Notes under the pieces: generated by a model
Told to the model about the DNA's origin: nothing
What the model saw: the letters and a program-made list of their open reading frames with translations, nothing else
The model's database searches: none
IMG/VR virus record: IMGVR_UViG_3300032237_000427
Coordinates: 1 to 36,577 of that record
Source: a virus
Taxonomy: Duplodnaviria; Caudoviricetes
Length of the DNA stretch: 36,577 nucleotides
Direction: 5' to 3' (one strand)
Position numbers and translations under genes: made by a program
In this document: positions 27,487 to 32,862 of the stretch, piece after piece
How positions within the stretch are numbered: the first letter of the stretch is position 1
Layout of the letters: each line of letters opens with the position of its first letter

Positions 27487-27529
27487 AGAACCCCCGCCGC
27501 CGGTGTGTGGTGTCCGGGTGCGGGGGTTC
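27487..27529 (-). terminator. Hairpin terminator closing the small-gene cassette
   Basis: 11-bp stem AGAACCCCCGC/GCGGGGGTTCT with a short U-rich tail on minus. Confidence 0.6.
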
Positions 27530-27587
27530 TGTGGTGTGTGTTGGTGTCCGGTGTGTGTTTCCTCTCCTAGTAGGGCGGTGTTATGCG

Positions 27588-28089: not shown

Positions 28090-28136
28090 AAAAGCAAGCG
28101 CGCCCGGTGTCCGTGTCGGAACAAGCCGGGCGCGCT
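28090..28136 (-). terminator. Rho-independent terminator
   Basis: 11-bp stem AGCGCGCCCGG/CCGGGCGCGCT followed by UGCUUUU. Confidence 0.7.
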
Positions 28137-28151
28137 CGATTTGTGATTCTC

Positions 28152-29716: not shown

Positions 29717-29759
29717 AAAAAAGAACCCCCGGCACCGGGGAGAGAACCGGCACCGGGGG
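29717..29759 (-). terminator. Rho-independent terminator with anti-SD loop
   Basis: 13-bp stem CCCCCGGUGCCGG/CCGGUGCCGGGGG, loop UUCUCUCC, then UUC and a U-run. Confidence 0.8.
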
Positions 29760-29803
29760 CTAGCCCAACCCTGCTCGCTGGGGGAGAAGGCAGGGTGGGA
29801 ACC

Positions 29804-30404: not shown

Positions 30405-30830
30405 CTAATACCAGCCGTGCTGGTAATGGTGCCGTAGCGCTCGACATGGCGTGTCGTAGCGGTGGGCAATGTAAGTCAAGCCACGCCTGATTTGTTCCCT
30501 GGTTGGGGTTTTGGGATCTAAACCAAGAATTTGTGGAATGCCACCTGCTCCGCTGTGCTTGTTTAGCGCTTGGGGTCGGAAGTTGGATTCCCTAGTCCAC
30601 AACCGCAACAAACACCTGACTTGCTTTTCAGGCATTCCGCTAGCCATGCTGATAGTCAACATGCGAGCTGCGCTAGGAGAACGGTCACGGGACGCGCGTG
30701 GCGTGGAGACGACGGGAATCGAACCCGTGTGCCGCACCGTACCCACATGGGGTCTTTCGATACGGTCGAAACTTTCCGCCCCCCACGACAAATGTACCGC
30801 CACAAGCAACAACACACACGCGCTACGCAT
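30405..30830 (-). CDS. Secreted lytic transglycosylase (SLT/lysozyme-like fold)
   Basis: Signal peptide MRSACVLLLVAVHLSWG; CL..LW.RESN....A.N..SGA.GIPQ with catalytic Glu; GLTYI..RY..PC.A...GWY. Confidence 0.85.
   Translation of the reverse strand: MRSACVLLLVAVHLSWGAESFDRIERPHVGTVRHTGSIPVVSTPRASRDRSPSAARMLTISMASGMPEKQVRCLLRLWTRESNFRPQALNKHSGAGGIPQILGLDPKTPTREQIRRGLTYIAHRYDTPCRALRHHYQHGWY
30704..30783 (-). ncRNA. Minimal tmRNA-like RNA: tRNA-like domain only, no mRNA-like domain
   Basis: Acceptor stem GGGGGCG/CGUCUCC-A with G3:U; stemless D-loop GAAAGUUUCGA; 8-bp helix CCGUAUCG/CGGUGCGG capped by ACCC/GGGU; T-arm ACGGG-UUCGAUU-CCCGU. Confidence 0.85.
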
Positions 30831-31011
30831 CCCCACCGCCCAACTCAATCATGTCCAGCACGATTCTTCTGCGCTGCTCGTTAGGTTCTGGGCCAATCCA
30901 CGCCCATTGTTGCGGTGTGATTTTGTGAATGTCTTTGTTGATTCGACAAATGCGGCAGAAGTCTCGGTGTGAGGCTTTCCACTGGCCGCATTCAGGGCAT
31001 TCGTTTGGCAT
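30823..31011 (-). CDS. Small Cys-rich hypothetical protein
   Basis: CPEC..CRIC; overlaps both neighbours. Confidence 0.55.
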   Translation of the reverse strand: MPNECPECGQWKASHRDFCRICRINKDIHKITPQQWAWIGPEPNEQRRRIVLDMIELGGGDA

Positions 31012-31309
31012 TAAATCCGCCTAACAGGTTAGCGAAAAACATGTCACCGGCAATCGGTTTAGGTGTGATGCCGAGTTTGCGTCGGTTCGCGGTCAGTGAG
31101 CGTTCCGTCATGCCACCCCACACGCCTTCAACATTGTGATGCAGCGCATAGTCAGCGCAATCATTCAACAAAGGGCAACCGGAACATACGGCTGTGACAG
31201 CGATTTGCATTTTGTGGTCATCAGAAAAAAACCAGTCCGGGTCAAGTCCGGGATCGTTACAGGCTTGGGTTCCATCTTGCCAAGCCAACTCTGGTGAAGT
31301 GATAATCAT
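30992..31309 (-). CDS. whiB: WhiB family transcription factor
   Basis: Four Cys (AC..PDWFF..VCSGCP...C) and GVWGG.TER; GGAGG RBS before ATG 31309. Confidence 0.92.
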   Translation of the reverse strand: MIITSPELAWQDGTQACNDPGLDPDWFFSDDHKMQIAVTAVCSGCPLLNDCADYALHHNVEGVWGGMTERSLTANRRKLGITPKPIAGDMFFANLLGGFNAKRMP

Positions 31310-31828: not shown

Positions 31829-31863
31829 GTGCGCCTCCAATCTGTCAGGAGACAGTATCGGGG

Positions 31864-32139
31864 CTACTTGCTGGGTTTGTCAAGCGTTTCAATCAGCGTG
31901 TCTAAAACTTGTAGCGTGTCGCTGATGAGTGTTAAATTGTCGTTGGCTACCGCGAGTTGTTCGTTGTAGTCACGGTTAGGCAACTGGGTGAGCATGTCGC
32001 GTGAGCGTTGCACTTCATAGCCTTTGAGGATGAGTGCTTCACGCTCGGCCTTCAAATGGTTCAAGTGGTATTCGGTTGTGACTGCGCTGATGAAATCTGG
32101 TTCGGTTGGGTTGTGTACCCATGCCGGGTCGAGTGTCAC
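31864..32139 (-). CDS. Coiled-coil hypothetical protein
   Basis: GTG overlaps the holin stop; helical heptad pattern. Confidence 0.6.
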   Translation of the reverse strand: MTLDPAWVHNPTEPDFISAVTTEYHLNHLKAEREALILKGYEVQRSRDMLTQLPNRDYNEQLAVANDNLTLISDTLQVLDTLIETLDKPSK

Positions 32140-32349: not shown

Positions 32350-32360
32350 AACCTAGCACA
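32350..32360 (-). promoter_or_regulatory. Extended -10 for a leaderless holin transcript
   Basis: TGTGC-TAGGTT 7 nt before the ATG. Confidence 0.55.
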
Positions 32361-32862
32361 CGCATTGGCTGTTGTGGCAGGTGACGCACATTCCGGCTAG
32401 TTGTTCGGCTCGACAGTTTCCACAGGGTTGTGGCTTGTCGTGAAATTGGCAGTGCTGTTGTTTATCTATGTTGTTATTACTGTTGTAACCCAACGGACTT
32501 GGGGTTTTATCCCGTGGACTTGGGGTTTTAGACCCCCCAGACTTGGGGTTTTCTTCTTCAAAACCCCAACTCATTTGGGGTTTTATTTCGGAGTTATCCA
32601 CAGCCTTGAGGAACTTAAATTCGGTTGCTTTGCCACGACCCCACCCCTGATTTGTGACGCAAATCACACCATCATCAATGAGTTTTTTGACAGTCAACCG
32701 CACAAACTCAACCGAACACCGACACTTCTTAGCCAGCGTTGCCTTCGACGCAAAAAAGAAACCCTCATCCGTAGCGAAATCAGCCATCGCTAAAAGGATC
32801 AGCAGTTCCTTTCCATCGTAAGGCGCGTCTGACCACACCCGGCTCATCAACTTGATACTCAC
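32353..32862 (-). CDS. Replication initiator with N-terminal winged HTH
   Basis: MSIKLMSRVW...LILLAMADFA..EG..F.S..TLA; repeat-encoded linker; Cys-rich tail. Confidence 0.8.
   Translation of the reverse strand: MSIKLMSRVWSDAPYDGKELLILLAMADFATDEGFFFASKATLAKKCRCSVEFVRLTVKKLIDDGVICVTNQGWGRGKATEFKFLKAVDNSEIKPQMSWGFEEENPKSGGSKTPSPRDKTPSPLGYNSNNNIDKQQHCQFHDKPQPCGNCRAEQLAGMCVTCHNSQCVC
32496..32584. repeat. Iteron-like repeats (candidate replication origin)
   Basis: GACTTGGGGTTTT at 32496, 32517 and 32540; inverted AAAACCCCAA at 32560; TTGGGGTTTT at 32575; AT-rich tract at about 32455-32490. Confidence 0.75.

Follow-up and report, generated by a model that had tools for sequence, protein, structure and literature searches.

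The window analyzed here, 36,577 nucleotides in length, is a complete phage record (IMG/VR IMGVR_UViG_3300032237_000427) with direct terminal repeats, and it contains terminase-like, portal, capsid, SSB, Rad52-type, and WhiB genes. No tyrosine integrase, resolvase-type recombinase, or SmpB is encoded in the window. On its minus strand, positions 30405 to 30830 encode a transglycosylase-like open reading frame (ORF) of 141 amino acids with an ATG at 30830, a stop codon ending at 30405, and an in-frame TTG at 30848. Codons 16 to 43 of this ORF coincide with an RNA element that corresponds to tmRNA's tRNA-like domain (TLD). The ATG is overlapped by the stop codon of a 62-amino-acid gene (30823 to 31011, minus), upstream of which lies a WhiB-family gene (30992 to 31309, minus) that is also found upstream in the related contig L002. 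According to PMC10202952, WhiB marks phages of actinobacteria, and its presence points to an actinobacterial host. The nearest upstream match to a sigma-70-like promoter consensus (10/12) is at 31854 to 31883 (minus), and no further match to this consensus was found between that site and the TLD; three sites were obtained against 1.6 expected, with a tool that is weak for actinobacteria.

Several other features of the two contigs were recorded. Downstream of the transglycosylase-like gene, its gene block ends in a strong 15-pair terminator-like hairpin (29724 to 29761, minus). By eye, a G/C-rich hairpin that is absent from the window lies between the enzyme gene stop and the next gene in L002 (2269 to 2300). 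Four 22-nt repeats and an inverted copy (32489 to 32586) are found inside an HTH_36 gene (32353 to 32862); they are likely replication origin iterons and probably explain a weak c-di-GMP-I riboswitch match (E = 0.008, under the cutoff). At 355 to 1710, a gene that we take by eye to be cytosine methyltransferase-like is apparently split over overlapping frames (355 to 1119 and 1159 to 1710), with a GA-repeat run near the junction and a second ORF (551 to 997) nested within. Two 17-bp inverted repeats (27487 to 27530 and 28091 to 28142) occur near the start of the terminase gene.

The 141-residue product begins with a hydrophobic segment (30786 to 30830, minus) that is conserved as protein and is likely a signal peptide or anchor. 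The peptide GAESFDRIERPHVGTVRHTGSIPVVS makes up residues 17 to 42, within a stretch predicted to be disordered (residues 9 to 42), and a helix is predicted at residues 52 to 62. Protein alignment and the predicted structure delimit a folded domain (residues 44 to 141; 30408 to 30701, minus) with an invariant W-x-x-E81-S motif, in which E81 is the presumed catalytic glutamate. This C-terminal domain matches PHROG transglycosylase families in a profile search (E = 3.4e−15). The invariant E81-S82 pair aligns with the E-S motif of MltF in a match that is not significant (E = 0.92), and the predicted fold is nearest to muramidases and Slt70, with a middling Z score of 6.2 (rmsd 2.8, 72 aligned). 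The predicted structure had no Foldseek match at an E value of ≤0.001, a PDB sequence search returned nothing significant, and the ORF had no Pfam match at 0.01. Profile and structure predictions suggest that the product is likely a cell wall enzyme, transglycosylase-like and possibly with a lysozyme-like fold. The first-pass annotation had placed the TLD in frame between the N terminus and the catalytic domain, and this arrangement was recovered, with codons 16 to 43 lying between the hydrophobic segment and the PHROG-matching domain. Four families of phage transglycosylases (phrog_12661, phrog_35836, phrog_3310, and phrog_15428) share the C-terminal E-S-motif domain and the hydrophobic N terminus, but the TLD-coded linker is exclusive to a group of 16 proteins; its motif occurs in 0/163 and 0/145 other relatives. 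The full-length protein was found in none of the named phages searched.

Structure of the TLD element

The element spans positions 30704 to 30783 (minus), 80 nt from G1 to the discriminator A73, and is a TLD-only mini-tmRNA whose sequence is exactly the one first quoted for it. A73 belongs to the identity set of alanyl-tRNA synthetase (AlaRS). The layout proposed at first pass was reproduced by the minimum free energy (MFE) fold, in which all 20 stem pairs form. The 5′ strand of the 7-bp acceptor stem, which holds the G of the G3-U70 pair, lies at 30777 to 30783 and pairs with 30705 to 30711; it contains Gly and Ser codons that are invariant in 16/16 proteins. It is followed by an unpaired, stemless D-loop of 11 nt ending in UUCGA, with AG for the usual GG (30766 to 30776), and by a P2 helix of 8 bp that is capped by AAAG and a hairpin of 4 bp (30732 to 30765, hairpin at 30741 to 30753). 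Fold, Rfam alignment, and covariation agree that this small hairpin replaces the pseudoknots and tag reading frame of tmRNA. The 3′ half consists of a 3-nt CAC connector (30729 to 30731) and a T-arm (30712 to 30728), which has a 5-bp stem and a 7-nt loop, UUCGAUU; the arm as a whole encodes T-G-S-I-P-V. A73 is followed by CGC and the element thus lacks an encoded CCA, as had been noted before.

The Rfam tmRNA model (RF00023) aligned to both ends of the element and skipped the middle, with a score of 41 bits (E = 5e−14), which is below the gathering score of 47; the L002 copy scored 61 bits. About 294 model positions, comprising the pseudoknots and tag frame, are swapped for a few bases in the window element, and the P2 strands are only 18 nt apart in the fold and the Rfam alignment, which leaves both parts absent. 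ARAGORN called 0 genes in the window. The tmRNA match anticipated at first pass was therefore obtained with Infernal, albeit at a subthreshold score, and not with ARAGORN. A tRNA-Ala was rejected because the fold has no D-stem or anticodon loop and ARAGORN called no gene, and a full trans-translation tmRNA was rejected because the pseudoknots and tag frame are missing and the score is below the cutoff.

Folding energy was not unusual relative to shuffled sequences (z = −0.49; 54 of 200 shuffles were equally stable), and it was likewise uninformative for the L002 (z = −1.48) and mycobacteriophage DS6A (z = −0.86) copies. It is the Rfam tmRNA match together with the covariation described below that indicates that the element did not arise by chance. 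Within 300 nt of mRNA context, an equilibrium model, which ignores tertiary contacts, SmpB, and cotranscriptional folding, gave the acceptor stem a probability of 0.31 to 0.37 in the window and 0.01 in L002, at best a weak preference for the TLD fold.

Two positions that the first-pass annotation did not flag set the window copy apart. Most relatives carry GG in the D-loop (it is missing in 4 of 84 unique copies) where the window carries AG, and the window protein is the only one of the 16 with Ser at the corresponding codon. The connector is GAC in 60/84 unique copies, while the CAC of the window is found in 10/84 and in DS6A. The D-loop and the connector are the regions expected to contact SmpB, and the UCGAC at the end of the D-loop is kept in the window copy. 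In a near-identical strain from run X2, the G of the D-loop UUCGAC is changed at window position 30767 (Asp to Asn), on a single contig with a depth of 5.8 that may be in error. The absence of one D-loop G may reflect a weakening of the window copy and, taken with the X2 variant, suggests relaxed selection on it.

Selection on the RNA and on the reading frame

In searches covering proteins of 76 amino acids or more, the in-frame peptide encoded by the TLD was found in 16 proteins. DNA represents two independent copies, those of the window and L002; the other 14 are known as proteins, obtained by a protein search that favors intact frames. Between the window and L002, 19/19 compared pairs are kept, 7 of them by double changes and 3 by one-sided changes. 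In the stems, first and second codon positions lie opposite one another, which makes pairing readable from residues, although pairing via Leu, Ser, or Arg assumes the best codon. Read in this way, the T-stem pair is compatible in 16/16 proteins, all Watson-Crick, through five types (T-V, V-T, A-A, M-I, and L-S), and the type found in the window is shared with protein P0003. The acceptor codons pair in 16/16 proteins (14 Watson-Crick), and the P2 codon pairs are compatible in 15/16 and 16/16. With relatedness ignored, the permutation P value was ≤6.4e−4 for each stem pair, and of the 2,485 variable column pairs, the T-stem pair ranked highest and the acceptor pair next. If the count is restricted to distinct pair types whose codons are unambiguous or confirmed in DNA, no fewer than eight separate compensatory events must have occurred. 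G3, U70, A73, and C74 are implied by Gly, Ser, and Thr residues that are invariant in 16/16 proteins, and the TLD varies in length only by a single codon (27 or 28 residues). The covariation sought since the first-pass annotation was thus found both as compensatory changes between the two DNA copies and as residue covariation in the 16 proteins, and these comparisons support structural selection on the TLD as RNA.

The 16 members scored 130.7 to 167 bits versus ≤122.2 bits for all 302 other scored relatives, and on catalytic residues alone they occupy one side of a branch that is not firmly supported (81/93). Viral scans for more group DNA yielded only the L002 contig (best 80 of 437 matches), a metagenome scan yielded the same contig (best 80 of 398), and a genome scan gave no confirmed relative. 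A profile search of cluster representatives added no new group member. A relaxed TLD pattern run over 160 relative loci matched only the two copies of the L002 contig, and a tmRNA match was found in 0/3 complete TLD-less relatives; these searches thus revealed no free-standing donor adjoining the gene.

Translation through the element was assessed from the codons around it, aligned by protein. Over the 15 codons that precede the TLD, 7 residues are common to the window and L002, with 0/7 codons identical, and nucleotide identity is 10/15 at codon position 2 versus 5/15 at position 3. Because this hydrophobic N terminus is conserved as protein and not as DNA, translation likely runs through the RNA. 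The catalytic domain has a strong codon rhythm (identity of 57, 65, and 35 of 78 by position) that is missing inside the TLD (14, 15, and 18 of 27), which suggests protein-level constraint on the flanks and RNA-level constraint on the TLD, whose peptide drifts. The excess of third-position identity in the TLD over the catalytic domain was not significant on its own (P = 0.07).

All 16 members have a Met and a hydrophobic segment 8 to 41 residues upstream of the TLD, a hydrophobic N-terminal segment is also present in 96% of 163 TLD-less relatives, and in 10/16 members the stretch from the TLD to the catalytic core is devoid of Met. Initiation at M57 would truncate the helix predicted at residues 52 to 62. 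Among 73 nonembedded TLDs with enough flank, the same frame was open in 10, a start was present as well in 3, and the full layout occurred in 0. The first-pass annotation had allowed that translation might start downstream of the element, for example at MLTISM; the frame through the TLD was instead found to be under protein-level selection. These patterns suggest that the same bases are likely both conserved as RNA structure and translated.

Distribution of TLD-only RNAs and embedding in portal genes

A DNA pattern scan of viral contigs (11 of 64 parts) found 119 loci, which extrapolates to about 760 overall. A full 7-pair acceptor with G3-U70 was present in 93/119; with the window and L002 added, these gave 95 rows and 84 unique sequences. 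The filter dropped 26 loci, some of them tRNAs or attachment site ends, although one of them, L074, with 6/7 acceptor pairs, may be a genuine copy. In an alignment of 59 rows chosen from the 84 unique sequences plus DS6A, the window aligns with DS6A, L002, and 56 other phage copies, and by structure, as judged from these alignments, the window element is a member of the DS6A TLD-only class. The first-pass view of the element as DS6A-like therefore stands, while the assumed rarity of the class does not, given 119 pattern loci.

A BLAST search of the element against named phages returned T-arm fragments only. Two look-alikes in cultured phages (hits H42 and H43) are similar to a TLD-only RNA over the full length but are not annotated as such: the Streptomyces phage GiJojo copy (L283, 899 to 987) lies in a tRNA cluster under the called hypothetical gene 44, and the Pontimonas phage phiPsal1 copy (L284, 901 to 981) lies between genes ahead of the capsid gene. 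DS6A, the Streptomyces phages GiJojo, LuckySocke, and pSt2308, and Pontimonas phage phiPsal1 provide free-standing look-alikes in culture for comparison.

Over the 84 TLDs, 81 open frames of at least 100 codons were found, 9 of which match PHROGs: 2 transglycosylases, 6 same-strand portals, and 1 antisense HNH frame whose matched part is outside the TLD. The remaining majority, 76/84 unique TLDs, lie outside any recognized same-strand gene (flanks were short at 39 of the 119 pattern loci). A DNA pattern for the portal lineage matched 30 loci with 11 unique elements, and in 30/30 an open stretch of no fewer than 485 codons leads in frame into the TLD. Portal TLD lengths (62, 65, 68, 74, and 92) all belong to one class modulo 3, while nonembedded copies are spread 26/33/17, and all embedded copies share one reading frame. 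In these lambda-type portal genes (L287 to L316, for example L287 1788 to 1852 on the plus strand, L290, and L293; proteins P0331 to P0360), the TLD either falls within the C-terminal tail or precedes an extension of 200 residues. The motif is kept in 17/63 portal homologues, some with about 200 further residues downstream, and several close sisters carry decayed versions; because portal sisters lack the motif or have it in decayed form, the RNA is dispensable in some lineages. By these sequence criteria, in-frame embedding has arisen in no fewer than two gene families that are unrelated, transglycosylase-like and portal. No report of a TLD inside a coding sequence was found in searches of an open-access literature collection, although supplementary tmRNA database tables could contain such sequences. 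What is new is the in-frame position in a coding sequence; the TLD-only RNA type itself is already known from DS6A.

Function of the embedded element and comparison with known systems

The primary study cited for the DS6A TLD-only tmRNA is reportedly that of Mao et al. (2009). In two later sources, a “TLD only” tmRNA is listed for DS6A (PMC4131195, PMC11915505), in agreement with the first-pass annotation. A DS6A-like molecule is said to inhibit tmRNA strongly, perhaps via SmpB titration and independently of the molecule's chargeability (PMC4131195), and the DS6A form is reported to inhibit endogenous tmRNA in Escherichia coli (PMC11915505). G3-U70 is described as an AlaRS determinant (PMC3985003); since it is also invariant in the group, alanylation would be expected, provided that the RNA has the free 3′ end that makes this pair relevant to AlaRS.

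Sequence comparison demonstrated that the RNA structure exists and covaries, that the frame is maintained, and that selection of the protein type acts on either side of the TLD. The reading that we favor, with a probability of roughly 0.58, is that a conserved TLD-only tmRNA lies in frame in the transglycosylase-like gene, is likely translated as a tolerant linker, and is likely excised on other transcripts as an alanine-chargeable SmpB competitor. A free-standing TLD gene would have been inserted once in a disordered stretch between the signal-like N terminus and the catalytic domain, at a site that would tolerate any 27 to 28 residues. The TLD would be transcribed as part of a longer message and would fold on transcripts that are not under translation. 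Host RNase P would then cut at G1, the 3′ end would be trimmed and CCA added, and AlaRS would charge the excised RNA at G3-U70. The charged RNA would bind SmpB and enter or block stalled ribosomes without a tag frame, leading to less ssrA tagging during infection. A cut transcript could not make the enzyme and would leave a stopless upstream fragment. The mutually exclusive outputs proposed at first pass would thus hold per transcript if the RNA is excised; the split between RNA and enzyme is probably passive, and a regulated switch is possible but unsupported.

The alternative that comes closest to this reading, though we regard it as unlikely, also accepts dual coding and excision but takes the RNA to be a tagless rescuer, an alanyl-TLD that with SmpB would take the stalled chain and free ribosomes without a proteolysis mark. 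The strict retention of G3-U70, A73, and the T-arm, which exceeds what a sponge needs, would be explained in this way; the reported inhibition is said to work whether the molecule is chargeable or not (PMC4131195), and messageless tmRNAs are said to be kept in mitochondria together with SmpB (PMC11915505). Without a frame there is no stop codon, however, and judging from PMC8012679, release would require an additional step. This, together with the reported inhibition in E. coli, is why we prefer a decoy. The TLD might instead act within the mRNA as a cis regulator: RNase P cleavage in competition with translation would silence the enzyme, or a nonstop product would survive only with tagging blocked, as in arfA, where an in-ORF stem-loop and a nonstop mRNA set a precedent (PMC8012679). 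Embedded copies occur in two gene families that are unrelated and in two or more portal sublineages, and G1 cleavage necessarily leaves a stopless upstream fragment, of about 450 codons in portals. That fragment encodes only about 15 residues in the transglycosylase-like gene, however, both insertion sites resemble low-constraint linkers for which tolerance alone suffices, and portal sisters lose the element. The 76/84 TLDs outside recognized same-strand genes indicate that embedding is unnecessary for the RNA's job, and because most TLD-only genes are free-standing, we favor tolerance of embedding over its exploitation; a cis-regulatory role is accordingly rather improbable. A broader version, in which phages repeatedly embed a mini-tmRNA as a one-piece control circuit, with RNase P excision both making a nonstop mRNA and freeing an RNA that blocks or replaces tagging, is doubtful, if slightly less so than the cis role by itself. 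In that case translation load would govern output, and in portal genes a tailless portal would be made only under suppressed host tagging.

The remaining explanations question the RNA or the frame itself. A genuine RNA that is decaying in the window copy, with bases that persist mainly as a protein spacer, would account for the lost D-loop G, the four G-U pairs beyond G3-U70, the lower Rfam score (41 versus 61 bits for L002), and the X2 variant, but all 20 stem pairs form, the T-stem pair type is common to P0003, and the CAC connector is that of DS6A, which makes decay improbable. There is still less reason to assume an ordinary small RNA gene followed by an enzyme whose start lies downstream, for example at MLTISM, with the upstream frame open by chance. 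Met residues do occur at 57, 62, and 66 in the window, an in-frame GTG is present in the same region of L002, and GTG or TTG starts are possible in the 14 protein-only members; against this, the upstream segment is conserved as protein, the full layout is absent from the 73 nonembedded TLDs, no truncated member was seen among proteins of at least 76 amino acids, and 96% of the 163 TLD-less relatives start with a hydrophobic segment. That the element is a functionless remnant left when the phage integrated at a host tmRNA gene serving as the attachment site is scarcely credible. Although tmRNA genes are reported to be common integration sites (PMC11915505), the complete genome has no tyrosine integrase or resolvase-type recombinase domain, both ends of the TLD are present and joined by a hairpin common to DS6A, and compensatory changes indicate selection on shape and not on identity to the host, so that the covariation largely refutes this origin.

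A tRNA-like RNA gene can be kept entirely within a phage protein gene, and so strongly that its stems are legible from amino acid covariation. Such embedded genes are overlooked by annotation pipelines, being missed by ARAGORN and near or under the Rfam cutoff. If the RNA is excised, each cut would create a nonstop mRNA, the substrate of the very system that the RNA targets, and in portal genes this mRNA would encode a nearly complete portal. The old question of why phages carry a messageless tmRNA would then become testable with one short construct that reports on RNA, protein, and tagging.

The closest known counterpart is the DS6A element (tmID 11587, tmRNA Website). Like the window copy, it is about 80 nt long and has a G3-U70 acceptor, the UCGAC D-loop end, a CAC connector, a P2 helix with an AAA linker and small hairpin, and a T-arm, with no encoded CCA and no tag frame. 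It differs in being intergenic, between gp33 and gp34, whereas the window copy is in frame inside a protein gene, as in the whole group, and lacks one D-loop G that DS6A has. Bacterial one-piece tmRNA (RF00023) has the TLD geometry and the alanine identity pair in common with the window copy, which cannot tag. CDS-less organellar tmRNAs, which include mitochondrial forms and forms of about 65 nt in Mallomonadaceae plastids (PMC11915505), have likewise kept the tRNA-like part and lost the message, but they are the organelle's own genes, while the window element serves a phage as an accessory RNA, lies inside a CDS, and comes from a genome without an SmpB gene. The arfA gene, reported to be controlled by an in-ORF stem-loop and nonstop mRNA (PMC8012679), is similar in having an RNA structure inside an ORF whose cleavage would leave a stopless message for trans-translation. 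The arfA stem-loop is cut by RNase III or ends by termination, and the gene makes a rescue protein, whereas the structure in the window is a tmRNA mimic whose cleavage we infer.
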